A DNA stretch of 28,387 nucleotides from a virus (lineage: Duplodnaviria > Caudoviricetes): the IMG/VR virus record IMGVR_UViG_3300047562_000517, positions 1 to 28,387 of that record, one strand, 5' to 3'. Made by a program: the position numbers and the translations under genes. Below are positions 5,753-27,449 of the stretch, in pieces (position 1 is the stretch's first letter; the number at the start of each line of letters is the position of its first letter). Below the pieces are notes generated by a model. It saw only the letters and a program-made list of their open reading frames with translations, was not told the DNA's origin and did no database searches.

Positions 5753-7213
5753 ATGAGTTTTGCATCACAAGGGGCTTACCCCGCTGGATTAACTCCTGCA
5801 CCTACTAAAACTTTATTTGACAAAAACTATTTGTCAATTAGTGGAGGAGATTTTGATTTTACAAAACAGTTTTTACCAGAAGTATACGAAAAAGAAGTTG
5901 AAAGATATGGAAACAGATCTGTATCTTCTTTTTTAAGAATGGTAGGAGCTGAAATGCCTATGGCTTCTGATGAAGTTGTATGGACAGAACAAGGAAGATT
6001 ACACGTTGCTTACGACAGTGCTAAAGTAAAAGTTGATAACACTGCTTCTGATAAAACGTTAGTTATTCTTGATTCTGCTGGAAACCCACAAGCTCACGCT
6101 ATTAGAGCTAATCAAACAATCATCGTTTCTAAAGGATTTGAAAGCGTAAAAGCTTTTGTTCAATCTGTAGACGCTGCTACTGGTGAGTTAGAGGCTTATC
6201 CTTTAACTTCTGCTAACTGGCCAGCTTCTTTCGTAGCTGTTGCTAACCCAACTGACCTTAAAGTATTTGTTTACGGTTCTGAGTTTGGTAAAGGATCTGC
6301 TGGAATGGACAAATCTATTGACGCTGGATTCCAAAAGTTTAGTAATTCACCAATTATCATTAAAGATAAATACAACATCAACGGTTCTGACACTGCTCAA
6401 ATCGGCTGGGTTGAGGTTACCTCTGAACTTGGGACTTCTGGTTATTTGTGGTATTTAAAATCTGAGCATGAAACAAGATTAAGATTCGAAGATTATCTAG
6501 AAATGACTATGGTTGAGGCTGAAAAAGCTACTCAAACTATCGACATTTTAGATAACGCTGGAGCTGATTCTGGTCAAGACGTTAGAGGTACTGAAGGTCT
6601 TTTTGCTGCTATCGAAAGCAGAGGTTTGGTTTTCAACGATCACGACTTTGATAACGGAACTGGACTTCAAGGTCTTGCTGAGTTTGACATTATCCTTAAA
6701 GAACTAGACAAACAAGGAGCTATCGAAGAAAATATGTTGTTCTTAGATAGAGGTACTTCTCTTTCTATCGATAACATGTTGGCTAGAGCTAATTCTTACG
6801 GAAGTGGTGGTACTTCTTATGGAGTATTTAACAACTCTGAAGATATGGCACTTAATCTAGGTTTCTCTGGTTTCAGAAGAGGTTCTTATGATTTCTACAA
6901 AACAGATTGGAAATATTTGAATGACGCTGCTACAAGAGGTCTTACTGATGACATCGACGGTGTACTTGTACCTGCTGGTGTTTCTACGGTTTATGATCAA
7001 ACTTTAGGTAAAAACATTCAAAGACCTTTCTTACATGTTAGATATAGAGCTAGCGAAGCTGATGATAGAAGAATGAAAACTTGGATCACAGGTTCTGTTG
7101 GTGGTAACTATACTTCTGACATCGATGAAATGAATGTTCACATGTTATCTGAAAGATGTTTATGTGTACAAGGTGCTAATAACTTTATCTTATTCAAAGA
7201 TACTGCTAACTAG
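5753..7213 (+). CDS. Major capsid protein (HK97 fold, crAss-like)
   Basis: 486 aa. Position after portal and scaffold, highly-expressed-type codon bias (GCT, TCT, AAC, ATC, TTC), GTEGLFAAIESRG segment, followed by a terminator. Confidence 0.88.
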   Translation: MSFASQGAYPAGLTPAPTKTLFDKNYLSISGGDFDFTKQFLPEVYEKEVERYGNRSVSSFLRMVGAEMPMASDEVVWTEQGRLHVAYDSAKVKVDNTASDKTLVILDSAGNPQAHAIRANQTIIVSKGFESVKAFVQSVDAATGELEAYPLTSANWPASFVAVANPTDLKVFVYGSEFGKGSAGMDKSIDAGFQKFSNSPIIIKDKYNINGSDTAQIGWVEVTSELGTSGYLWYLKSEHETRLRFEDYLEMTMVEAEKATQTIDILDNAGADSGQDVRGTEGLFAAIESRGLVFNDHDFDNGTGLQGLAEFDIILKELDKQGAIEENMLFLDRGTSLSIDNMLARANSYGSGGTSYGVFNNSEDMALNLGFSGFRRGSYDFYKTDWKYLNDAATRGLTDDIDGVLVPAGVSTVYDQTLGKNIQRPFLHVRYRASEADDRRMKTWITGSVGGNYTSDIDEMNVHMLSERCLCVQGANNFILFKDTAN

Positions 7214-12700: not shown

Positions 12701-14229
12701 TAGAGATATTGCAAAATGTAAACAACTTAGGTAACAAAGCAGAGTTTGCTACTGAAAATCCAGCAATATGGGAAACTGAACCAAAAGAATCTGCTGAGCT
12801 AGATATTTACTATGCTGCTAGCGATGTTTATGATATATCAGAATTAAACGATGAGAAGCAGTTAGAATGGCATAACTGCTGGAGTTTTGGAAATGGAGTT
12901 GAATCAAACAGAATAAGAGATGATTACAACGCGGTTTTATTAGATAAGAACCCAATTGTATCAGCTGTTTTAGAAGAACCATATCAAGAAGAACTAAAGG
13001 GCTCTGGTTTGATATATTCGAACATATTTAATTCAACATCGGGTATAAACGGCTTAAATCAATTTATACAAGCTGAAAAAATAACAAAAGATCTTAATCC
13101 TAGTTATGGTACAATCCAAAAACTACACGCTAGAGATACTGATCTAATTTGTTTAACGGAAGATAAATGTTTTAATATACTAGCTAACAAAGATGCACTT
13201 TATAATGCTGATGGTAATTCAAACGTAACTTCTAACTTTAACGTTTTAGGGCAAGTAACACCATATGTTGGAGAATTTGGTATATCTACAAATCCGGAAT
13301 CTTTTGCAACATACGGATTTAGATCTTATTTTTCTGACAGAAACAGAGGAACTGTTTTAAGGCTTTCTAGAGATGGCATAGAAGAGATAGCTGCAAAAGG
13401 TATGGGGGATTTCTTTTCTGACAATCTACCATACTCTAAATCAATTATAGGAAGTTATGACGACGTCAACAACTCTTACAATATAACTTTAAACGCGCTT
13501 TCTCCAGAATGGCAAAAAAAGTTAGAAACAGGAGTTTTTGATAGAACGAATTGTAATATACCTGATGACCAAAGCGATAATATTACAGCTACAACTTTAA
13601 CATTTAAAGAAGATGTAGATGGTTGGGAAAGTAGAAAATCTTTTATACAGGAAAGCGGTTTAAGTTTAAACGGAGAATATTATACTTTTAAAAATGGTAC
13701 AATATGGAAACATAGAGCTAATAATAATTATAATACATTTTATTGTATTAAATATGACAGCTCTTTAAACTTATTGTTTAATGAAGAATCTAATAATGTC
13801 AAGGTTTTTAAAACATTAAATTATACTGGATCAAAACCGCGTAATTATATATATAACGTTTCTGGAACAAAAAGATATTCATTAGCCGAAATACAAGCTG
13901 ATTCTTTAATTCCGACAAACGAGACTATCGAACCTGGTTGGTATACAAACTGGATAGCAACAGATTTGCAAGAAGGAAGTTTAAAAACTTTTGTAAATAA
14001 AGAAGGTAAATATTATAACTATATAAAAGGTTTATCAACATATTTTGATGACAATTGCGACAATAATATTGATTCCAATGAGTTTTCTGTACAGGGAATA
14101 GGTAGAGCGACGGTGACTGGCAATACGCGAAGCGGCTTTAATGTGCATTTATACATAGATAACACTTGTTTTATAAACAACTATAACGTTCACTTATATG
14201 TGAGCGCTGATTGTTCTGAAGTAGGGTAG
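9790..14229 (+). CDS. Tail stabilisation / muzzle (nozzle) protein
   Basis: 1479 aa, beta-rich. N-terminus GRMNKDLDERIVPNGEYRDALN, plus GNRLVYGNY, FGNGVESNRIRDD and GEFGISTNPES segments characteristic of crAss-like stabilisation proteins. Confidence 0.75.
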   Translation: MPEIVRGFSRGRMNKDLDERIVPNGEYRDALNLEISASENSDVGAFENIKGNVELKNKSYNSRTGVYQTWDISSGDYISNLTNVKCIGSVRDTSAEKIYSFITSNEADVIAEYDQVSDLVRPLVVDTNNVFGFSEDYLITGVNVIESVIFWTDNKNEPKKVIIKDWQNSTNDFLTHSKIYERDFIEQDVTVIKKYPLKRPSLTMSESDRDGNIRTNLNYAFASLNQNGNYNSLDINTPPFNVTFTTSVDFLEGDTLTLDLNDDANEYNELFSIRLQVVEVINIYIYKVKILSIPDEIPTGTLPYDVELDLEDPLFEYKMPRFSYRYKYLDNQYSTFAPFTEAAFLPGEPFKYDSYHGYNLAMTNVARIIKISNFVTSDIPPDVKEIDILYKESNNNLVYKVESIAKNSNTWVANEYVIESEIISSVIEANQILRPWDNVPKKAKSQELIGNRLVYGNYTQGYDMTNKLGQDINHDLQIQIQHDEDTSDISIGNPSKSIKSQRTYQLGVSYIDKFGRQTPVFTSSKATKALAKSFAPLRNIIKAKVNNLPPSWAKYFKYFIKETSNEYYNLAMDRWYDAEDGNVWLSFPSSDRNKVSEESFIELKKKHASDVPVTENAKYKIISISNEAPTFIKTTKKLRGSGEHDWSTIPGLVDGFPLPGRTNFYIRNIVWKNLFSGLESSSGNLYVAISFGNNTSDYFEIANITTLGNPDDNNSIVKIDLIEPMDDTIAFTSTDSTFAGRISNTFVVTIRESVEENKPEFDGRFFAKIHKDATLQQNIIIEGTNPKYGVIRSKNVYARSSNRENVVHWWFFDYARPHPINGHSPDWHYENQGLVFEPHEYGWGCVAGQDKFDITWHGFGETQSHAFCDRHWSIWSNWDTDNANERPQKDFSDALKAVGTLFRFVGDPNEEVYEIKKVFRTFYTNSNRSIDCFGSGRKWYRRSIRYSIKVDRPMTWVPPIGVDSGNNYGIIEILQNVNNLGNKAEFATENPAIWETEPKESAELDIYYAASDVYDISELNDEKQLEWHNCWSFGNGVESNRIRDDYNAVLLDKNPIVSAVLEEPYQEELKGSGLIYSNIFNSTSGINGLNQFIQAEKITKDLNPSYGTIQKLHARDTDLICLTEDKCFNILANKDALYNADGNSNVTSNFNVLGQVTPYVGEFGISTNPESFATYGFRSYFSDRNRGTVLRLSRDGIEEIAAKGMGDFFSDNLPYSKSIIGSYDDVNNSYNITLNALSPEWQKKLETGVFDRTNCNIPDDQSDNITATTLTFKEDVDGWESRKSFIQESGLSLNGEYYTFKNGTIWKHRANNNYNTFYCIKYDSSLNLLFNEESNNVKVFKTLNYTGSKPRNYIYNVSGTKRYSLAEIQADSLIPTNETIEPGWYTNWIATDLQEGSLKTFVNKEGKYYNYIKGLSTYFDDNCDNNIDSNEFSVQGIGRATVTGNTRSGFNVHLYIDNTCFINNYNVHLYVSADCSEVG

Positions 14230-17350: not shown

Positions 17351-17959
17351 ATGATTCCAATTGGAGCAGCGTTACAAGGTATACAAGGCCTAGCTGGAAT
17401 AGCTGGAGGTATTATTGGCAGCGGTAAAAGAAAAAGAGAGCAACGTAAAGCACAAGAAGAGTATAACATGAACAAGCAAGCTTATATGGAGCTTGACACA
17501 TCTAATGTGTATAAAAACATGGAAAATGTTTACGAAGATCTTACTGTAAACACTCAAGCGGCAGATTTTGCAGCACAACAACAGCAACAAAGTTTGGCTA
17601 ACACCATGCAGGGGATGCAAGGCGCTGCTGGTGGATCTGGGATAGCAGCTTTAGCTCAAGCTATGGCCAGTCAACAATCTCAAAATCTACAGCAAGCATC
17701 GGCTAGTATCGCTGAGCAAGAGTCTGCTAATGAAATGGCTAAAGCTAATATGGCTGGCCAACTTCAAACCATGGAAGCTAAAGGAGAATTAATATCTAGA
17801 GCTCAAGAACAAGAGAAAACAGAAACACTTTTAGGTATGTCTCAACAAAGATTAGCAGCTGCTAACCAAGCTAGGCAACAAGCAACAGCTGGCATACTTG
17901 GTGGTGTTGGAGATGTTATAGGTGGGGCGGCTGGAATTTACGCTGAAATGGCTAGATAA
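17351..17959 (+). CDS. Putative ejection (internal virion) protein
   Basis: 202 aa, Ala/Gln/Gly-rich coiled coil with Gly-rich hydrophobic N- and C-termini, like podophage DNA-injection proteins. Follows the tail genes. Confidence 0.6.
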   Translation: MIPIGAALQGIQGLAGIAGGIIGSGKRKREQRKAQEEYNMNKQAYMELDTSNVYKNMENVYEDLTVNTQAADFAAQQQQQSLANTMQGMQGAAGGSGIAALAQAMASQQSQNLQQASASIAEQESANEMAKANMAGQLQTMEAKGELISRAQEQEKTETLLGMSQQRLAAANQARQQATAGILGGVGDVIGGAAGIYAEMAR

Positions 17960-17972
17960 AAAAAAATAAGAT

Positions 17973-19412
17973 ATGGCTAATAGAGATTTAATAGCACAAC
18001 AAGGTTTAATATATCAAAGTAGATATTATGATCCATCTCTTTCTTTTGAGCAACCTTTCGCAAGAGCACAGAGTATGGTTGATAATATTTTAGCTAGAAA
18101 AAAGAGAGAAAAAGCTTTAGTTGAATCTAAAGTGGCTAATTATATTGATAACATGGCCGAGCCATTAAACGTGGCTAAAATACCACCTAAATATAGAGAT
18201 TCTGTTAACAAGTTTTTGATACAAAAAAGAAATGAGTATGCTCAAGCCGCTAGAGTTGCTAGTAGATACAGTCCAACTTCGACAGCTTACATGGAGTCTG
18301 TTTCTAAAATGAATTCAATATCATCTTCTTTTGAACAACTAAATAATCAATTTGAGATATTTAAAAAGATGAAAGATGAAGATCTCCCTGATTTTACAGG
18401 TAGATTAGTTTCTGATGGTAATAAAAATAGTGATCTAAATATCTTAACAGATGTTCTAACAGATAAGTACGATATTAGTATAACTGATAATGGAAATATA
18501 TCTTTTTATACTGGTGAAATATCTGAAAACGGTGAAAATATTATAATTCAAAAAGAATTAAACGATCTTCCAAAATATTTTAACAAAGATTTTAAAACTG
18601 CTAATAAGATAGTAGAACTCAACAAAAAAATATACAATGGTGGTAATAAATTAGATGCTGCTAGTAGAGACTTTTATAAGCTTCAGTTAAAATCTATGTT
18701 GTCAGAAGGCGGTAGAGAGACGGTGGTTTCTCTAGCAACAGATGATTTTATTATAGATGGAGGTTTAGGTTTAGATCCAGCTCTTTTGGAAGACGAATCT
18801 AGACACGATGAGCTAACAAACATTGTTGTAGAACAATATTTAAACATGTTTGATAAAACAGCTTCTGCAGGATTTAAATCAGCAGAATACAAAAGAAAAA
18901 AACAGCTATTGGGTGACGGTGGCGATGATTTCAAGTTAACCCCTTCGGTTCAGCAAGAAATAACACTTGGTCAAGGTAGAGCTGGTAAAGCAAGAGAAAG
19001 TGCACTAGCATTTGTTAATGCTGCAAAAGCTGGCAACTGGGAGCAGGTTGCTAAAAAGTACATAAACTTTGTTAAAGCTAATTCTTCTGGAACAGCTCGT
19101 GAAATGATAACTAGAGGTGAACACTTTAAGTTGTATGCAAATCAATTCGAAGGAGTGAGTAGAGATAAATTGATCAAAGACTATAGAGAAATATATCCAA
19201 AAGATCAATATATGTTTATATTAAATAAAGGGCAGGTTGATCCAGAATTTGATGATAGTTGGTCTGGATTTAATCCTTTCTCAAATTTATCTGATCCAAA
19301 CGCTGTGTACCAAGAGTTACTTTATGACATAGGATTCTCTGACAATGCTGTTGGTTACTTTGTATCCGGAGGAGGCACTAGCTCTGACGAAGGGGTTTTA
19401 AACGTACAATAA
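17973..19412 (+). CDS. Putative ejection/cargo protein
   Basis: 479 aa with a helical N-half, located between the small ejection protein and the giant protein. No recognisable catalytic motif. Confidence 0.45.
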   Translation: MANRDLIAQQGLIYQSRYYDPSLSFEQPFARAQSMVDNILARKKREKALVESKVANYIDNMAEPLNVAKIPPKYRDSVNKFLIQKRNEYAQAARVASRYSPTSTAYMESVSKMNSISSSFEQLNNQFEIFKKMKDEDLPDFTGRLVSDGNKNSDLNILTDVLTDKYDISITDNGNISFYTGEISENGENIIIQKELNDLPKYFNKDFKTANKIVELNKKIYNGGNKLDAASRDFYKLQLKSMLSEGGRETVVSLATDDFIIDGGLGLDPALLEDESRHDELTNIVVEQYLNMFDKTASAGFKSAEYKRKKQLLGDGGDDFKLTPSVQQEITLGQGRAGKARESALAFVNAAKAGNWEQVAKKYINFVKANSSGTAREMITRGEHFKLYANQFEGVSRDKLIKDYREIYPKDQYMFILNKGQVDPEFDDSWSGFNPFSNLSDPNAVYQELLYDIGFSDNAVGYFVSGGGTSSDEGVLNVQ

Positions 19413-19426
19413 TAAAATAAAATATC

Positions 19427-19728
19427 ATGCTAGAAAAGCTTTATCAAGTACTTTACGATAAAAAACTATTTACTCAAGATTTTGCTAAATTTAAAAATGC
19501 TTGGCAAGATGAAGAATACAAGAAAAAAGTATTCAACGTAGTGAGTGAGAAAAAACTCTTCACGCAAGATTACGAAACATTTGTAAATTCTTATATAGAG
19601 GGAAAGCAACAAGGCGATGTTGCAACGGATGCAGCGACATCGTCTCAAAAAGATTCGGCATCCAACTCGGATCTATATTCATCGGATTGGATTATAGACC
19701 CAAAAACAGGAAAGTTTGTAGAAAATAA
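19427..19728 (+). CDS. Predicted 100-aa -1 frameshift product of the giant gene
   Basis: First 60 codons of the giant ORF, then -1 frame ATRRCCNGCSDIVSKRFGIQLGSIFIGLDYRPKNRKVCRK to TAA at 19726-19728. Confidence 0.6.
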
Positions 19729-22700
19729 AACACCTATAGACCAAACTAACGAATTCCAATTAGGTCCGACGCTGACCGAAAAATCCACGTATACAGACAA
19801 AGATAAACCTATTGATCCTGACTATTACGAAAGTTCTGGTTTAGGTTTTGGTGATCCAAGAACATACGAACAACAAGTTAAAGACTATGCTGAGGCTATG
19901 GACAAAGTCTTATCAGGTAAAGGGCAATGGGAGTCGATACTGAATAAAACTGTAGAGGAAAGATATAAAATAGCTTCTAAATTAATAAAAGCTCCAGTTG
20001 GATCACCATCTGATATCAGTGATTCTTATTACGATTACTGGAGACAGATAAATGTAGATGGATTTAAAGATTCTAAAAAAATACTTGAACCTTTGTTTTT
20101 AGATAAAAGATCGCTAAAAGATGATTATCTAGAAAGAAAAGTAGGCAATAAGTTATTTGAAAAAGATTTTAAACAAAGAATACAAGAAGGATTAACAGAA
20201 GACGATCTTATAACTCAAGCTGATAAAATCATTGGTGACATGATTCACGAAAGTGACTATATGTCAAAAGAATTTTTACCTTATTTTTATTCTAAAAACG
20301 AAGAGTTGTTTTATAATAAACAACTTGAAATGATAAACGCTATAGAGGGCGATTTTGTTAGCGATGCTGATCTATTGAATATAGAAGAAAAAATGAACAA
20401 GTTTCAATTAGATCTTTTAGAGGAAGAACTAAAAAAAGATAGAGGATATAATGAACTTGTAGCATCTATATTGCAGGTTGTTGGTGAGGATTTAAGTGTT
20501 GACATAAGAAAGTTTAATAAGTCGAAATTATTACCAGATTGGATAGAGGGTAATGCTATTTTAGAAGGTGTATTTAAAACAACAAAGGCTTTTGAATTGG
20601 GTTGGGTAAACACTGAAATGTTGCATAGATCTAAAGATTTTGCTAATATTAAAAACTTTTTAAAAGCAGTAGAGAGTGGCGAATTAAATGAACCTCAATT
20701 AATTGCTTTAGCTAAAGAGACTTTAGACGAGGCTGATATTATAAAGTTATATCCAAGACACTCTATGTCAATGAAAGAAGCGTTTGCTAGAGATGAAGCA
20801 TCTAATTATTTATCAGAGGGAGAATACGAGAATCTTTGGATTGGTGAAGATCCGATACCTTATTTGAAAAACAAAATAAAAGAGCACAATAAGTATTTCT
20901 TAAATCAATTATCTAATAGCCAGAGGTTACAAAAAGAATTAGACATTCTTGATAGCGCTAGATTATTTGACGAAAATGGCGTTACTTTTAAAGATATAAA
21001 ATTAATGGTTGGTGAACAGCTTCCACAAATGGTTGCTGCTATTGCGACTTTTGGCGGTAGTACTTATTTACAAGAAGCTGGTGGTGTTTATATAGAATCA
21101 TTATATAGAATAGCTGAGCATAAACACGGTATGGCTTTTGCATCTGCTAGCGATAAAGAAAAGCAACAAATGCTTTTTGATATTATAGATGCTGGTGAAG
21201 ATGATCCAGATACTGCTATTACTGTTGGTGTGGTAAATGCTGGTTTGGATTTTGCGTCAAATATATTTGTCGTAACAAAAGGCGCTAAAGTTATACCAAA
21301 ACAAGCTTGGAGAGCTTTATTAAGAGGGGAATTTAAAAAAGCAGTAAATAAAGTAGGTGTAAAAAACATGGCTGTTGATGCGTTAAAAATATCTACAGCA
21401 GAATCTATAACTGAGAGTTTACAAGAAATAAACTCTATGGTTGGCGCTAATGTTAGCACTGGTATTTATAAATTTGATCCAACTAGAGTAAAAGAAGGTG
21501 GCGCACAAGGGTTTTTAAGTAGCCTTATATTTTTTGGACTTGGTAAAGGTAGATCTTTGATAAACTTTACCGGAGAACAAATAGCTTTGAAAACTAGGTG
21601 GACTAGTAAAGATCATGTTCTATCTATGATAAAAGCTGAAAAGGCTAGGGTCAAAAGAGATTTAAAAGATGGTAAAATAAACAAAAAAGAAGCTGAAGAG
21701 CAAATTAGTAACATTAACGATGCTACTGATGTCTTGATAGACGAAGGTCTATATCAAGTTGGCCCTGAAAATCAAACAGCTGCAATAGATAAAGCGAATG
21801 ATTATGTTTCTAAAAAACGAGCAGTTCAAAAGAAAGAACAGGATTTAAAAGAGGCTAAAGAAAACAAGTCTTCAACAGAAGAAGATATTAAATATAGAGA
21901 AGAGCAACTTGAAGTAGCGTTAAATGACTTAGCAGATTCAAAATACGAGATGCAAAAAGTTCAAATTGAAGACTCTTATACAAAGAACAAAGGAAAAGCA
22001 GCTCGTAGAGTTAATGAGTCTACAGAAGGACCAATGGCTAACAAAAGAGTTTTTACTTTTAAAACCAGAAAAGAAGCCGCTGCATTTGTTAAGAGATATA
22101 AAATAACCGTAGACGATCAAATTCAAGCCATGCTTGATGGTAAAGCTAACGGTGTAGCTTTACAGTCTGGTATAAAATACAAGGGTAAAGACGTAATACC
22201 AGCATTGATCGTTGATCAAAATATCAAAGAAAATATACGGAATAGTAGTAGAAAAAAAGATGGTGCTTTAATCTCAGCATTCGCTGAAAGTCACGAGGTA
22301 ACACATTTTATATTAGACTCTATAGATCCAAAGATAGTTTCTGATATGGTTAATCAGTTGAAAGCTGATTTAAAAAACTCAGGCGACTTGAAGACATCGC
22401 TAATGCTTGATTTTATAAATCAAACACAAGCTAACTATAAGTCTAGAGGCGTTGATCAACAAACACTAAATCAAGAGTTTTTAACAGCTATGAGCGATTA
22501 CCTTCAAGTACAACAAGCCCTTGATGTTAAATCACCACTAGCAGACGCTTTTTCTAGAATGGGTAAAGCTATAAACAAAGCTATATTTGGCGCTACTGGT
22601 GCTGAGATTGACCTTTCAACTCCCTCAGCAGTCTTTAGTTTCTTAAAAAACTGGAACAAGTTTTTAAATAGCAAAGGTACTATAAAAGTAAGGGGAGCTG

Positions 22701-25700
22701 TTGAAGTAGATGAAGTTACCGGTGAAACAAAATCACGAGCGCAAATAACCCTTGAAGAACAAAAACAAGCTATTATTGCTGAGCAAAAAGCATTGATTTC
22801 ATCTAAAGATGATCCTGCTATTGCTAAGCAAATGCAAGAAAATATAGAAAAAATAAAAGAGCTTAATAAGGCTATACAACTAGAGAGAGACTTGGCTGAT
22901 CAAGGTAAGTTTCCAACTGGTATATCTCAAAAAGCAAAAGACATTACTAGAAAAAACAAGTTGATAGTAGATGAGGCTTATGATCCAAAAACATCTCCAG
23001 AAGTTAAAAGACAAAAGTTCAAAGAGCTTTACGATTTAAACAGAGGTATAATAGAAGGCACTGTAAATAAACAGTTTAATCCAAACATCGAGAGTAATTT
23101 AACTTTAGAGGATTTTAGACAAGCATATAATCTTGAGTTCTTTAACATACTTGAAAACCAATACGATCCATCTAAAGGCCCTCTAGGTGCTTATATGAAT
23201 ACATATTTACCATTAAGACAAGGTAATATATTAAGAGAGTTGATCGGATCTAGAGAAATGATGTTTACCGAGGACGCAACATCCGCTGTTGGTAACAAGC
23301 AAATAGGTTATACGCCTGATTATGGCAACTTTACACAAGAAGAGTATGTACAGCAAATGGTTAACACTATGGAGACTCTTGGTTTTACACCAGAGCTTCA
23401 AAACGTAGTTAAAGAAGCTGTTGTTAAAATTCTTGGTGGTAGACTGGATATATCTTCAAGAAACTTCAAAACAGAACTATCTCAGTCGTTAATGACTATG
23501 TTAAAAAGTGAGATACAAACTAAAGTACTTGGTAGTAAACTTAAAAATAACTTTTTGGGCATGAAATACCCAGATTTTATGGCTAAACACTGGGAGGATA
23601 TATACGCTATAATGCCTATTGATGCTATAAATAAAAGGTTTTCTACTCAAACAAAGCAAGAAAAGGCTAATAATGTACCACATCCTTTTATATATAAATT
23701 CACAGATGAATCTGGTAAACAAATTAGAGATACTAGGATAGAAGATAATACTGGAGTTGGTAGAGGTAAGACAAAAAAGAGAGTTGTAACTCAACAAGAA
23801 TTCTTAGATTTCTTCTTTGGAGACAACGTAGGCGGTAGTACGCAGGGTACTAGAAAGGATACATTAGCTGAGATGATTGCTGAGCAGGCTGGCTTTGACG
23901 TGTTTAGTTATCTTTTAACTAATGATCCTGAAGTAACCGAGTTGTTTAGAGGTAGACAAGAATTATTTGGTGAAATTGTAACAGAAGACACTATAGATAG
24001 ACTTCAAAGAGAAATAAACAGACATGACGGATCTAGAAACGCTAGTTCTAGAGCTCAAATTGTTATAGACTCAGCAAACTATCACGGTTTAACTATAGAA
24101 TATATTAACACTATATTTGACGACGTTAAAAAAGGTGAGATTATAGATTACAAATCTAAATCAATTAACATGTTTAGAAACGACCTTTTAGATGTTTTAA
24201 GATTAGATGACGCGGTAGTTGATGTTGACTTGTATTTTAATACTTATAATTCTAGAGTTTCTGAGGACTTTGAGATTAGAGGTTTTAATTTAGAGCTTGG
24301 TGATAAAAACGCTATGATTACCGTTGCTGAAAAAGACGGTAGAAAAAATCCATATCAAAACAATTTTAAAACAAAGTTAAACCTAGACAGAGCAATACTT
24401 ATACCTGGTCAGTACGCTGATGGATTAATAGAAAGACAGGGTGCTATAGATATAAGCATAGACTTGATGAAAGATTACAGTTGGTTTGATAAACCTTCTG
24501 TTACTACTAAGTATTTAGGAAAATTTTTCCAAGAAGAAGGATATATAACTCAATCAGAATTAGAAAACAATTATAGCGCAGAAGCATTAAGATCTTTGTT
24601 GGTTAAAAAAGGTTATGATCATTTAAGCTTTTTTGATGAATCAACCGAAACTGAAAGATTTATAATCTTGAATAAAGAAGCTATAAGTAGAGCTAGTGAA
24701 ATAGCTTTTAATGCTAAATTAGATGAACTTATAAATCCTAGTAGAGCTCAGTTGTCTTTAGAAGGAACTATGGGTAATATCATAGAACAAAAAACAAAAG
24801 GTAAAATAAAATCCAAAGAACAAATTACAGCGGCAGCTGCTAACGTAATGCAAAAAGATAGATCTTTTATATCTAAAATAACAGGTACATTTAACTATTT
24901 ACCTTATAACGCTGAAGACTTTATAGGATTGACTAGAGTTTTCACGCCTGCTGGAAAAGATGGTGACGCGGCTATAAAATTTATAGAAGAAAGACTTTTA
25001 GAACCATATTATCAAGGTCAACAACAGTTTAGAACTTGGAAGCAAAATCTAAATATTCAATATAATAGGTTTTTTGATAGAGCTGAATATGTTAAAAAAA
25101 TAGATTCTAAAGGTATGCCTAGCTTAAGCAAGCAGACTGTAGAAGGTGAAATTACTATTAGAGCAAAAAGATCTAAAATAGCCATGGTAGAAGAACTTGT
25201 TAAAAGTAAATCTATAACTAGAACGGAAGCCGACGCTATGATAGCTGATATAAATAGGTTTAAATTTAAAAAATCAAGTTTACAACAACCAGTAAACGTA
25301 AAAGGTAAAACTTTTACCGCGGAACAAGCTGTTAGAGTGTATTTGTTTTATTCTGCTGGAGAAGATATTGATCCTTCTTTGATATCAGTAGAAGAAGTCA
25401 AAGGTCTTGTTGATTTCGTTAAAGATCCAAATAACGTGGAATTTTTATTGTTTGCTAGTTCTTTAAGAGGCTTAGTTGGTAGAACAAGATCAAAATCTAC
25501 TGGTGATTACTATATTAAATATAATGACGATATAATTAATAACACGGTAAGTCACGATATATACAATCACGCTGAAAGCGAACGCAAAGTGTTTTTTGAG
25601 AAATTTAAAAATAACTTCGAAAACATATTCACAAATAAGAACATGTTAAAGCTTGAAGCACTTTACGGTAGTAACTATATAAAAGAGCTTAATAGTTCTT

Positions 25701-27196
25701 TTAGAAGAATGTATACTGGTAAAAACGAAACAACTAGAGCAGCTAATCCAGTTGAAACAGCTATAATGGGTTGGACAAATGCTTCTGTTAACTCTATAAT
25801 GTTCTTAAACTTCAAGTCCGCTGCGCTTCAGTTAATATCGTTTGCTAACTTTATAAACTGGACTGATAACAATATTGTTTCTGCTAGTAAAACACTTGCT
25901 AACCCAAAACAGTTTGCTCAAGACTTCGCTATGTTATATAACAGTAGGTATTTGACAAATAGAAGAGGTGGTTTACAGTTTGATATAGAATCTTCAGCTG
26001 TTGAAAAACTTCTTAGAGAATCTATGGCTGGTGAAAAAGATACGTTCTCGGCTTTTAAAAGATTTTACGCTCAACTAGTTAAGTTTGGTTATTTACCAAC
26101 TAGAACAGCTGACTCTATTGCAATAGCTTTTGGAGGCGCTACTTTTTATAGAAATAGATTAAATACATATATAAGTCAAGGACTAACAGAAACTCAAGCT
26201 ATCGAAAAGACAATGATAGACTTTGAGAGATTAGCTGAGGAGAGCCAACAGTCTAGTGATCCATCTAGAATATCTAGTATTCAAATAGGACCTTATGGTA
26301 GATTAGCCTTTGCATTCATGAACACTCCGTTCCAGTATGCTAGATTATCAAAAAGAGCTGCTTTAGATTTAATAAACGGAAGAGGTGATAGAAAAACAAA
26401 TTTATCTAAACTAACATATTATACTTTTGTTCAGTCTATATTCTTCTCTGCAGCTCAAAACTTGTTAAACGTATTTGATTTAATACCTTTATTCAAAGAC
26501 GATGATGAGGAAGAAGAGTTGACACCAGAAGAAAAAACATCTTACTTCTATGCCTTGAACTCTTGGATAGATGGTCAAATAAAAATGTTTGGTATTCCAG
26601 GACTTGGAGCTACAGTTATCAAAAACATGAAACTGTCTGATTATCAAGATGAATTGTTTAGAAATAAAGAAACCGGTGGATTTATAAAACCAAAAAGAAA
26701 AGAAGAAAACCAAATAATTAAAGATCTATTATCTTTTTCTCCACCTATTAGTTCAAAAGCACAACAGTTATCTAGCATAGATAAACTTAAAAAGTGGAAT
26801 ATAAACAAACAGAGAGCTGCTTATTATGGATTAGATGATTTCTGGTATTTATATCCTCAAGATCCTATTTGGGAAATTAGAGCAAGACAAGCTAACGTTT
26901 TTTTTAATATACCGCTAGATAGATTACATAGAAAACTAGAAAATATTTCTTTAGCACTAGATGAAGAAACCAAATTACACACTGATTTGCTGTTGCTTAT
27001 GGGTTATAGTAAATATGTTCAATTGCCGAAAGAAAAATGGGATTTACCTTATCCTGAAACAAAAACTAGGGACTTTAGAATGTTCTTAAAAAGATTAGAA
27101 AGAGAGAAGAAGAAAAATTCAAAATCTAGGGCTGGTAGAAAAAAATTCCAATCAAAGCAAGAATATTTAAACTATTTAAACGAAAAACGTAAATAA
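19427..27196 (+). CDS. Giant multidomain (polyvalent) virion ejection protein: hydrophobic helices, zincin, sigma region-2-like, ART-like, helical C-terminal domain
   Basis: 2589-aa ORF in the position of the large ejection proteins of podophages. HEVTH at 22292-22306, ELYDLN...EDFRQ...YDPSKG at 23006-23239, KKGYDH...ETERFIIL at about 24605-24670. Confidence 0.7.
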   Translation: MLEKLYQVLYDKKLFTQDFAKFKNAWQDEEYKKKVFNVVSEKKLFTQDYETFVNSYIEGKQQGDVATDAATSSQKDSASNSDLYSSDWIIDPKTGKFVENKTPIDQTNEFQLGPTLTEKSTYTDKDKPIDPDYYESSGLGFGDPRTYEQQVKDYAEAMDKVLSGKGQWESILNKTVEERYKIASKLIKAPVGSPSDISDSYYDYWRQINVDGFKDSKKILEPLFLDKRSLKDDYLERKVGNKLFEKDFKQRIQEGLTEDDLITQADKIIGDMIHESDYMSKEFLPYFYSKNEELFYNKQLEMINAIEGDFVSDADLLNIEEKMNKFQLDLLEEELKKDRGYNELVASILQVVGEDLSVDIRKFNKSKLLPDWIEGNAILEGVFKTTKAFELGWVNTEMLHRSKDFANIKNFLKAVESGELNEPQLIALAKETLDEADIIKLYPRHSMSMKEAFARDEASNYLSEGEYENLWIGEDPIPYLKNKIKEHNKYFLNQLSNSQRLQKELDILDSARLFDENGVTFKDIKLMVGEQLPQMVAAIATFGGSTYLQEAGGVYIESLYRIAEHKHGMAFASASDKEKQQMLFDIIDAGEDDPDTAITVGVVNAGLDFASNIFVVTKGAKVIPKQAWRALLRGEFKKAVNKVGVKNMAVDALKISTAESITESLQEINSMVGANVSTGIYKFDPTRVKEGGAQGFLSSLIFFGLGKGRSLINFTGEQIALKTRWTSKDHVLSMIKAEKARVKRDLKDGKINKKEAEEQISNINDATDVLIDEGLYQVGPENQTAAIDKANDYVSKKRAVQKKEQDLKEAKENKSSTEEDIKYREEQLEVALNDLADSKYEMQKVQIEDSYTKNKGKAARRVNESTEGPMANKRVFTFKTRKEAAAFVKRYKITVDDQIQAMLDGKANGVALQSGIKYKGKDVIPALIVDQNIKENIRNSSRKKDGALISAFAESHEVTHFILDSIDPKIVSDMVNQLKADLKNSGDLKTSLMLDFINQTQANYKSRGVDQQTLNQEFLTAMSDYLQVQQALDVKSPLADAFSRMGKAINKAIFGATGAEIDLSTPSAVFSFLKNWNKFLNSKGTIKVRGAVEVDEVTGETKSRAQITLEEQKQAIIAEQKALISSKDDPAIAKQMQENIEKIKELNKAIQLERDLADQGKFPTGISQKAKDITRKNKLIVDEAYDPKTSPEVKRQKFKELYDLNRGIIEGTVNKQFNPNIESNLTLEDFRQAYNLEFFNILENQYDPSKGPLGAYMNTYLPLRQGNILRELIGSREMMFTEDATSAVGNKQIGYTPDYGNFTQEEYVQQMVNTMETLGFTPELQNVVKEAVVKILGGRLDISSRNFKTELSQSLMTMLKSEIQTKVLGSKLKNNFLGMKYPDFMAKHWEDIYAIMPIDAINKRFSTQTKQEKANNVPHPFIYKFTDESGKQIRDTRIEDNTGVGRGKTKKRVVTQQEFLDFFFGDNVGGSTQGTRKDTLAEMIAEQAGFDVFSYLLTNDPEVTELFRGRQELFGEIVTEDTIDRLQREINRHDGSRNASSRAQIVIDSANYHGLTIEYINTIFDDVKKGEIIDYKSKSINMFRNDLLDVLRLDDAVVDVDLYFNTYNSRVSEDFEIRGFNLELGDKNAMITVAEKDGRKNPYQNNFKTKLNLDRAILIPGQYADGLIERQGAIDISIDLMKDYSWFDKPSVTTKYLGKFFQEEGYITQSELENNYSAEALRSLLVKKGYDHLSFFDESTETERFIILNKEAISRASEIAFNAKLDELINPSRAQLSLEGTMGNIIEQKTKGKIKSKEQITAAAANVMQKDRSFISKITGTFNYLPYNAEDFIGLTRVFTPAGKDGDAAIKFIEERLLEPYYQGQQQFRTWKQNLNIQYNRFFDRAEYVKKIDSKGMPSLSKQTVEGEITIRAKRSKIAMVEELVKSKSITRTEADAMIADINRFKFKKSSLQQPVNVKGKTFTAEQAVRVYLFYSAGEDIDPSLISVEEVKGLVDFVKDPNNVEFLLFASSLRGLVGRTRSKSTGDYYIKYNDDIINNTVSHDIYNHAESERKVFFEKFKNNFENIFTNKNMLKLEALYGSNYIKELNSSFRRMYTGKNETTRAANPVETAIMGWTNASVNSIMFLNFKSAALQLISFANFINWTDNNIVSASKTLANPKQFAQDFAMLYNSRYLTNRRGGLQFDIESSAVEKLLRESMAGEKDTFSAFKRFYAQLVKFGYLPTRTADSIAIAFGGATFYRNRLNTYISQGLTETQAIEKTMIDFERLAEESQQSSDPSRISSIQIGPYGRLAFAFMNTPFQYARLSKRAALDLINGRGDRKTNLSKLTYYTFVQSIFFSAAQNLLNVFDLIPLFKDDDEEEELTPEEKTSYFYALNSWIDGQIKMFGIPGLGATVIKNMKLSDYQDELFRNKETGGFIKPKRKEENQIIKDLLSFSPPISSKAQQLSSIDKLKKWNINKQRAAYYGLDDFWYLYPQDPIWEIRARQANVFFNIPLDRLHRKLENISLALDEETKLHTDLLLLMGYSKYVQLPKEKWDLPYPETKTRDFRMFLKRLEREKKKNSKSRAGRKKFQSKQEYLNYLNEKRK
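19460..19570 (+). repeat. Tandem 30-aa-period protein repeat (KKLFTQD x2)
   Basis: KKLFTQDFAKF at 19460 and KKLFTQDYETF at 19550, exactly 90 nt apart. Confidence 0.8.
19600..19663 (+). promoter_or_regulatory. Predicted -1 programmed ribosomal frameshift signal (slippery heptamer plus H-type pseudoknot)
   Basis: In-phase G GGA AAG (19600-19606), 5-nt spacer, stem 1 19612-19623/19634-19645 (12 bp), stem 2 GGATGC 19627-19632 / GCATCC 19658-19663. Confidence 0.78.
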
Positions 27197-27218: not shown

Positions 27219-27449
27219 ATGAAAAGCTCTTTAAAGAAAGGTTGTGGACCTGGTAATCTAGGGAGTCCATTAAAGTTGGATCCTATGACTGGTCTTTTGG
27301 TTAGTAAAGTAGTTGGTAAAGTTGTTGATAAAGCTTTAGATAAATCACCTATGAAAAAGAAAGAACCATGTTGGTCTAATTATGAAATGGTTGGTATGAA
27401 AAATAAAAACGGCAAAAAAGTACCTAACTGTGTGCCAAAAAATAAATAG
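27219..27449 (+). CDS. Small basic protein with CWxxY...GKKVPNCV motif
   Basis: 76 aa, Lys-rich, SPLK and SPMK motifs, C-terminal CWSNYEMVGMKNKNGKKVPNCVP. A-rich initiation context. Confidence 0.65.
   Translation: MKSSLKKGCGPGNLGSPLKLDPMTGLLVSKVVGKVVDKALDKSPMKKKEPCWSNYEMVGMKNKNGKKVPNCVPKNK

Follow-up and report, generated by a model that had tools for sequence, protein, structure and literature searches.

The window considered here is the whole of a 28.4-kb virus record, about 47% complete, that holds a terminase-portal-capsid-muzzle module. Close to the start of a giant gene in this module lies a candidate signal for -1 ribosomal frameshifting, and the locus raises the question of whether a single gene gives rise to two proteins with a common N-terminus. 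Judged by comparison with homologous genes, the site is quite probably a conserved recoding cassette that yields a 100-aa protein beside the 2589-aa virion protein, and recoding in the window is itself very probable.

The giant gene and placement of the phage

The genes of the window that bear on this question, together with the domain that precedes the site, are the following.

5753-7213, plus strand: major capsid protein (phrog_13704), used for placement of the phage
17351-19412, plus strand: two genes, of 202 and 479 aa, upstream of the giant gene
19427-27196, plus strand: giant virion-module gene of 2589 aa, the last of three genes (202, 479 and 2589 aa)
19427-19597, plus strand: N-terminal domain of ~57 aa with two tandem repeats, common to the long product and the predicted short one

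The three genes likely encode an ejected core of which the 202- and 479-aa proteins are the smaller members; we take the trio to resemble the gp14/15/16 core of T7. The status of the giant gene product as an ejection protein is suggested by gene position, and the gene is likewise the last and largest of the virion module in phi38:1, phi18:3, Elemovirus, Panino and MW202828. In phi18:3, the positional counterparts of the 202- and 479-aa genes are annotated as MS/MS-detected in virions, and gp123, the positional counterpart of the giant gene, also carries an MS/MS-detected annotation. A tblastn search of the named phages with the N-terminus and with the whole giant protein gave no match. The C-terminal third of the protein falls near the LPD38/LPD39 clusters, which is a lead only. 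The N-terminal domain matched no PDB entry and no Pfam family at the cut-off, and PHROGs and Atlas likewise held no family for this domain or for the short product.

The capsid protein is 51% identical to that of MW202828, 47% to that of Panino, 44.5% to that of Elemovirus, 37% to those of phi38:1 and Calle, and 21% to that of phi18:3; with this homologous capsid and the same virion gene order, the phage falls within the group of Pervagoviridae, Pachyviridae and Elemovirus. No tape-measure or tail-tube gene was recognised in the module of the window. The 202-aa gene and the giant gene each have a run of nine A's at their end or immediately beyond it, at positions 17958 and 27203. A 76-aa ORF 3' of the giant gene (27219-27449) has a short C-terminal segment with two Cys, to which five PHROG families, all of unknown function, have matches.

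Structure of the predicted frameshift site

The elements of the site are arranged along the plus strand as follows.

19600-19606, plus strand: slippery heptamer G GGA AAG in the -1 phase, at codons 58-60 (GAG GGA AAG) of the ORF 19427-27196
19607-19611, plus strand: spacer of 5 nt, checked directly in the sequence
19612-19623 with 19634-19645, plus strand: predicted pseudoknot stem 1, 12 bp, two of them G-U
19627-19632 with 19658-19663, plus strand: predicted pseudoknot stem 2, exactly complementary
19606-19728, plus strand: -1 frame tail of 40 codons, followed by TAA at 19726-19728
19651-19686, plus strand: core of the -1 tail, R-F-G-I-x-L-G-x-I-F-I-G (family form about RYGIxIGRWFIG)

The predicted pseudoknot is of the H type, with loops of 3, 1 and 12 nt, and the predicted shifted product has 60 + 40 = 100 aa. 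The original prediction had described the heptamer, the spacer, both stems, the loop lengths and the 40-codon -1 frame, and every one of these coordinates was confirmed in the sequence. The GC-rich island that it placed in an AT-rich gene is also present: about 50% of the 60 nt that follow the heptamer are G or C, whereas 500-nt windows along the rest of the giant gene have a GC content of about 29-36%.

Stem 1 alone folds with z = -4.65, and none of 200 shuffles folds as well; the wider stretch 19607-19670 reaches only z = -1.92 in a folder restricted to nested structures. The H-type pseudoknot scored -34.7 on a simple stacking score of our own, which is not a validated folder, and surpassed all 200 dinucleotide shuffles (mean -14.3, best -27.0), which marks the structure as more than chance. 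For stem 2 by itself, shuffling confined to the sequence 3' of stem 1 gives p = 0.03. A further hairpin is predicted directly 3' of the pseudoknot, at 19667-19700, in a 111-nt fold.

Compared with canonical -1 signals, the site has a conserved X XXY YYZ heptamer in phase and a predicted 3' structure at the usual distance of 5-9 nt downstream, and its new frame is under selection across the family, although weakly in pairs that include the window. GGGAAAG occurs only once more on the plus strand of the window, in the muzzle gene (13625-13631) and out of the -1 phase. The window's site contains no run of at least eight A or T, and hence no run for transcriptional slippage; visual inspection of the 25 nt preceding its heptamer shows no evident Shine-Dalgarno-like stimulator, and no indel was seen among the assembled contigs that cover it. 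One contig from an RNA library spans the site, which does not amount to a demonstration of transcription. A minus-strand gene at the site was considered and rejected, its ORF not being kept in locus L092.

Conservation among close relatives

The closest set comprises eight sequences, the window and seven viral contigs that match the N-terminus of the giant gene. The heptamer G GGA AAG is invariant in all eight, the -1 frame is open and alike in all eight (one ends at the end of its contig), and third codon positions freeze 3' of the heptamer. Covariation of the stems, which had been proposed as a check, gave a divided result. Pairing is kept, with 91% of cells paired in the named structure as opposed to 28-59% when the structure is slid along the alignment; in stem 1, 86.9% of cells are paired and two pairs are changed on both sides among seven distinct sequences, and stem 2 is paired in 100% of cells, yet is nearly invariant. 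Changes on both sides are no rarer in shuffles, 252 of 500 of which reach the same count of two pairs (the covariation score is reached by 3 of 500). By itself, the covariation evidence from the window's clade is modest.

Selection on the -1 frame is likewise weak at this range. Synonymous -1 changes over the overlap number 0 of 19 between the window and L002 (all 19 being non-synonymous) and 5 of 14 between the window and L003. The last 13 residues of the window's tail differ among close relatives where the 0 frame stays similar, and they appear unconstrained in the -1 frame.

Homologues and selection on the -1 frame

A profile search with the ~57-aa N-domain found 205 homologues (150 of them listed), mostly N-terminal in position and many of them in giant proteins. 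A further 160 loci (the best 80 of 105 and the best 80 of 267) were fetched with a pattern of the domain only, blind to the site. With the window and the first seven relatives these make 168 records, reduced to 94 representatives and, after removal of three with a broken 0 frame, to 91 non-redundant homologues.

A strong in-phase heptamer lies within 165 nt of the domain end in 86 of these 91 homologues and in 56 of 617 background windows. A motif of Gly and aromatic residues is present in the -1 frame of 46 of the 91 (1 of 370 background windows), in the 0 frame of one and in the +1 frame of none. The -1 frame is open for a median of 29 codons, and tails range from about 17 to about 50 aa. 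These comparisons show that phages related to Pervagoviridae, Pachyviridae and Elemovirus have the predicted cassette just behind the short N-domain of their giant virion gene. The original prediction had named loss of the heptamer or pseudoknot, or early -1 stops, in homologues as what would count against it; the outcome is in its favour, and the homologues support a conserved -1 signal that predicts a short protein with the N-terminal 60 aa in common. Four of the 91 (L060, L067, L089 and L091; G069-G072) have a giant gene with the N-domain, lack both site and tail and hold no second copy of the domain in their partial contigs, which indicates that the product is not universally needed.

Substitution patterns were compared in 41 disjoint pairs. 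Difference rates at the successive codon positions of the 0 frame are 0.093/0.065/0.277 in the N-domain, 0.152/0.211/0.195 in the overlap and 0.242/0.212/0.339 downstream, so that variability in the overlap moves from position 3 towards position 2. The synonymous share of -1 changes is 84 of 322 (26%) in the overlap, compared with 55 of 694 (8%) in the domain and 78 of 914 (8.5%) downstream, and TCG makes up 116 of 416 Ser codons in overlaps versus 93 of 2122 elsewhere. A profile built solely from the tails of relatives with an A-run at the site (see below) was run on 383 alternative-frame segments of the window's giant gene and ranked the window's core segment first, with E = 1.1e-4 against 0.19 for the next. 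The comparisons show selection of its own on the putative -1 coding frame across the family; the expectation of such selection is borne out at that level, and falls short in the window's own pairs and over its last 13 residues.

Tails have a mean net charge of +5.0 and are 21% aromatic, whereas the 0 frame of that stretch has a charge of -4.6; the 0-frame linker is itself recognisably conserved and acidic (about SEDGSS). The +1 frame after the A-run is often open for 25-60 codons (L016-L175), carries the motif in 0 of 91 homologues and is possibly a by-product of the acidic linker. A search with P0070 matched only four cyanophage records (E 0.3), and one with P0007 found no locus. Bacteroides phage BKO1-TP3 (L217:5630-6200) carries a related N-domain, on a giant protein with the annotation DarB-like, and the first 600 nt of that gene hold no cassette.

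Two types of putative recoding signal

The pseudoknot is not the family's general signal: most homologues have an unstructured run of ten A's. A run of at least nine A or T is found at the site in 153 of the 168 records, and it consists of exactly ten A's in 145, nine in four and eleven in four. The A10 run sits in two codon phases. Runs of at least nine number three in 271 kb of flanks, and the A-run is the only run of at least eight in phi38:1 (32.5 kb) and Panino (41 kb). The A-run type includes the cultured phi38:1, Calle and Elemovirus. All nine named records examined (phi38:1, Calle, Elemovirus, counted once, Maribacter phage Panino, phi18:3, phi19:3, phi46:3, phi13:2 and MW202828) have a run of nine to eleven A's at the same place, followed by a basic alternative-frame tail that contains the Gly/aromatic motif in all but MW202828. 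Thus phi38:1 and Calle (Pervagoviridae), Elemovirus, Panino and the Pachyviridae (phi18:3, 19:3, 46:3, 13:2) carry an A-run, whereas the window carries a heptamer and a predicted pseudoknot. The annotations of the named phage records examined make no mention of a frameshift.

A predicted pseudoknot scores better than each of 20 shuffles in 18 of 23 GGGAAAG loci, in 1 of 17 and 0 of 38 controls, and in only 5 of 80 A-run loci. Stem 2 is significant alone in 13 of the 23 versus 1 of 40 (the first 40 of the 80 A-run loci), and in distant members its sequences differ and their complementarity is kept. A search for GGGAAAG with the downstream motif found 33 loci, 30 of them in the single correct phase; one of these in-phase loci was put down to chance and the three out of phase were dropped, and the 23 loci are the in-phase set without redundancy plus five domain-fetched cases.

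A third set of 136 loci was fetched by the downstream motif alone, its second scan covering 48 of 64 parts. Removal of two short loci, duplicates and three unrelated sequences left 89, of which 41 have an A-run and 48 do not. In 39 of the 48, the best pseudoknot within 100 nt, chosen blindly, begins 3-10 nt after an in-phase slippery word, and in 33 of the 48 the spacer is 5-7 nt. G GGA AAG is the commonest slippery word of this class (21 of 39), the others being shift-prone forms such as GTA AAG, A AAT TTT, G GAA AAG and G GGA AAC. Because the pattern-fetched sets overlap and were selected for the tail, they serve as a test of phase, spacer and structure but not of the tail; many motif-fetched loci were retrieved through the 0-frame linker sequence itself. 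One subgroup (L177, L182, L222, L243 and L253) has GGGAAAG with a 5-bp hairpin, no clear pseudoknot and a tail free of Cys.

The emphasis on a "Cys-rich" protein does not survive this comparison. Tails average 2.39 Cys in 36 non-A-run cases and 0.34 in 41 A-run cases, and the Cys codons of the window's tail fall within the stems. With Cys common only in non-A-run tails and its codons in stems, it is probably a by-product of the stems, though it may have a use within the pseudoknot clade; the conserved core is the Gly/aromatic motif.

In five records, listed below, nine A's replace ten, and the annotation splits the N-domain from the giant ORF.

L213:25310-25650: A9 run of phi18:3
L215:6004-6330: A9 run of phi19:3
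L216:7004-7330: A9 run of phi46:3
L218:4119-4400: A9 run of phi13:2
L209:31594-31800: A9 run of Panino

Either the sequencing missed one A of the homopolymer, or the A9 is a true allele whose full protein would require slippage. Other records read through the A-run with one A more or fewer (P0012, P0013, P0015, P0028, P0050 and P0090, and further P0115, P0126, P0143, P0145 and P0152, with loci L050, L137 and L148); they may represent sequencing errors or DNA-level slippage, and those with one A more spell the predicted short product. The Elemovirus record MT497078 (L210:1-200) opens inside the giant gene, at about codon 28, which leaves about 90 nt in front of its A10 run. Many Elemovirus records have the same capsid coordinate, and assemblies or genome ends may fall there.

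Evolutionary history of the signal and the N-domain

A capsid gene was found in all 37 pseudoknot records and in 29 of the 35 others. A FastTree phylogeny of 63 capsids was built from the window, the best 30 of the 37 pseudoknot records, 23 A-run phages, 4 cassette-less phages and 5 named phages, leaving out two partial rows; phi18:3, on a long branch, served as the root. All 31 sampled pseudoknot capsids form one clade (support 99) that includes three cassette-less phages, and the A-run phages lie outside it, the A-run being the older state when phi18:3 is the root. The nesting of the pseudoknot clade among A-run phages suggests a single switch of signal, and it is reasonably likely that one change from probable polymerase slippage on A10 to ribosomal -1 frameshifting occurred in the window's clade. 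With three cassette-less phages in the pseudoknot clade and one among the A-run phages, the losses were probably independent.

The N-domain has a different history. Dozens of unrelated N-domains precede the same cassette, three N-domain clusters occur with both signal types, and phi13:2 and phi18:3 have different N-domains with a near-identical cassette behind them. The comparisons show a domain that has evidently been exchangeable between lineages and does not track descent. Repeated switching of signal types, at which the common N-domains hinted, was rejected on the upstream gene and the capsid tree, which indicate that the signal follows the lineage and the N-domain moves.

Comparison with known recoding systems

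The slippery word G GGA AAG is the one used by lambda itself. In the part of PMC5009743 available, the same word is listed for HCTV-5 g-t, and lambda gpG and gpGT are described as two products with a common N-terminus and a set ratio, the shifted tail binding a second partner. The window resembles gpG/gpGT in that a phage morphogenesis gene is predicted to give two products with a common N-terminus, by way of a heptamer known from tail-chaperone shifts. The gpG/gpGT shift lies near the end of its gene, extends the protein and is found upstream of the tape-measure gene in long-tailed phages. In contrast, the window's predicted shift at codon 60 of 2589 would truncate the protein, ending it at 100 aa, with no extension past the 0-frame stop; its site does not lie between recognised tail tube and tape-measure genes.

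Truncating recoding is known from dnaX, whose new frame adds almost nothing in length in E. coli and which has an upstream Shine-Dalgarno-like stimulator. The accessible text of PMC5009743 describes stops close to the site in the new frame of dnaX, with tau and gamma arising by ribosomal -1 frameshifting in E. coli and by transcriptional slippage on a 9-base run in Thermus thermophilus. The family described here would be like dnaX in reaching the same truncated outcome through the ribosome or the polymerase in different lineages, and differs in that its gene is a structural gene of phages and the tail specified by the new frame, about 17-50 aa long, is under selection.

The signal of E. coli copA consists of a heptamer and a pseudoknot, and its product of about 70 aa is essentially the N-domain alone. 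As given in the available part of PMC9548414, an efficient -1 shift near the start of copA releases this N-domain, a copper chaperone. The window is similar in that a -1 shift near the gene start is predicted to give a small N-terminal product of a large protein. Unlike in copA, a cellular transporter, the tail is the conserved part here and the N-domain is exchangeable. A shorter product with a common N-terminus, as in dnaX and copA, is predicted for the window; a near-immediate stop is lacking.

No report of the cassette was found in the open literature covered, at the level of listings and opening lines of abstracts. In the available text of PMC8776804, the terms frameshift and slippage have 0 matches, and that of PMC7886860 has a single mention, concerning RNA polymerase genes of another group. 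The site is very probably a real, family-wide recoding cassette, apparently one without an earlier report.

Proposed mechanism and alternative explanations

In the window, a share of ribosomes, stalled by the predicted pseudoknot, would slip one base back on G GGA AAG, tRNA-Gly and tRNA-Lys moving from GGA AAG to GGG AAA. In the A10 phages, RNA polymerase would slip and add an A. Either route would produce a protein composed of the N-domain and the basic-aromatic tail beside the giant protein. According to the available part of PMC5009743, G_GGA_AAG is shift-prone in E. coli, and runs of nine A (or T) slip efficiently.

That no recoding takes place, the hairpin serving in termination, in processing or as a signal in the DNA, and the -1 peptide being a shadow of the acidic 0-frame linker, is improbable. 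The linker is indeed recognisably conserved, and its sequence fetched many of the motif loci by itself. Such a shadow does not account for the rare TCG codons and the variability at 0-frame position 2, both of which -1 coding predicts, nor for a slippery word that stands in phase 5-7 nt before the stem whatever its sequence, nor for the single correct phase of 30 of the 33 GGGAAAG-plus-motif loci; moreover, the window has no U-tract after stem 1, and an Rfam search of the site returned chance matches only. It is a less remote, if still doubtful, alternative that the A10 relatives also shift on the ribosome, at tandem A AAA AAA, or vary in their DNA, so that no mechanism was switched and the window's site would be ribosomal -1 all the same. 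A AAA AAA fits X XXY YYZ, the giant frame is broken at the run in 3 of 168 records, and five cultured records have A9. Yet downstream structure is absent from A-run loci (present in just the 5 of 80 mentioned above), the number of A's stays at ten in either of the two codon phases of the run, and decoding of the run uses AAA codons, A AAA AAG being the final heptamer in 0 of 91 homologues.

The replacement of the signal while the tail was kept suggests that the product, and not the signal, is conserved. What this product does can be proposed only tentatively. The short protein would be a ratio-fixed adaptor, its N-domain pairing with the identical domain of the giant protein and its conserved tail docking on a conserved partner inside the head, so that the giant protein is loaded for ejection; this would invert the gpG/gpGT scheme. 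A packaging adaptor of this kind is a possibility favoured by retention of the tail while the N-domain was swapped. About as likely is a role in which the short protein is itself ejected or structural and its tail binds membrane or DNA at entry; the charge and aromatic content of the tails and the location of the gene in the likely ejected core are consistent with this role, but swaps between unrelated N-domains are simpler to understand if the domain need only match the copy in the giant protein. It is unlikely that recoding mainly lowers the output of the giant protein, with the tail as a degradation or disposal tag. Truncation near the gene start would reduce output at little cost, four of 91 lineages do without the cassette, and tail length varies; however, an immediate stop would lower output equally, and phages of both signal types have retained the Gly/aromatic motif, in most cases several residues short of the C-terminus.

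Implications for phage biology

For this branch of Bacteroidota podophages, an as yet speculative picture is that of an unannotated morphogenesis protein, possibly a packaging adaptor, that combines a universal docking tail with a lineage-specific N-domain address and whose signal switched once from A10 to pseudoknot. The cassette explains the split annotation of the giant gene in five phage records and is a source of dozens of natural variants of the heptamer-plus-pseudoknot arrangement from Bacteroidota phages, as well as of a second natural case, after dnaX, in which two recoding mechanisms appear to replace each other. Since the group includes the culturable phi38:1, Calle, Elemovirus and phi18:3, the proposal can be tested at once. 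If made, the short protein adds a missing component to the virion module of widespread aquatic phages related to flavobacterial ones, and it opens a way to study how giant ejection proteins are loaded and dosed in podophages; if the adaptor proposal is true, a packaging adaptor for ejection proteins has been hidden in an overlapping frame.
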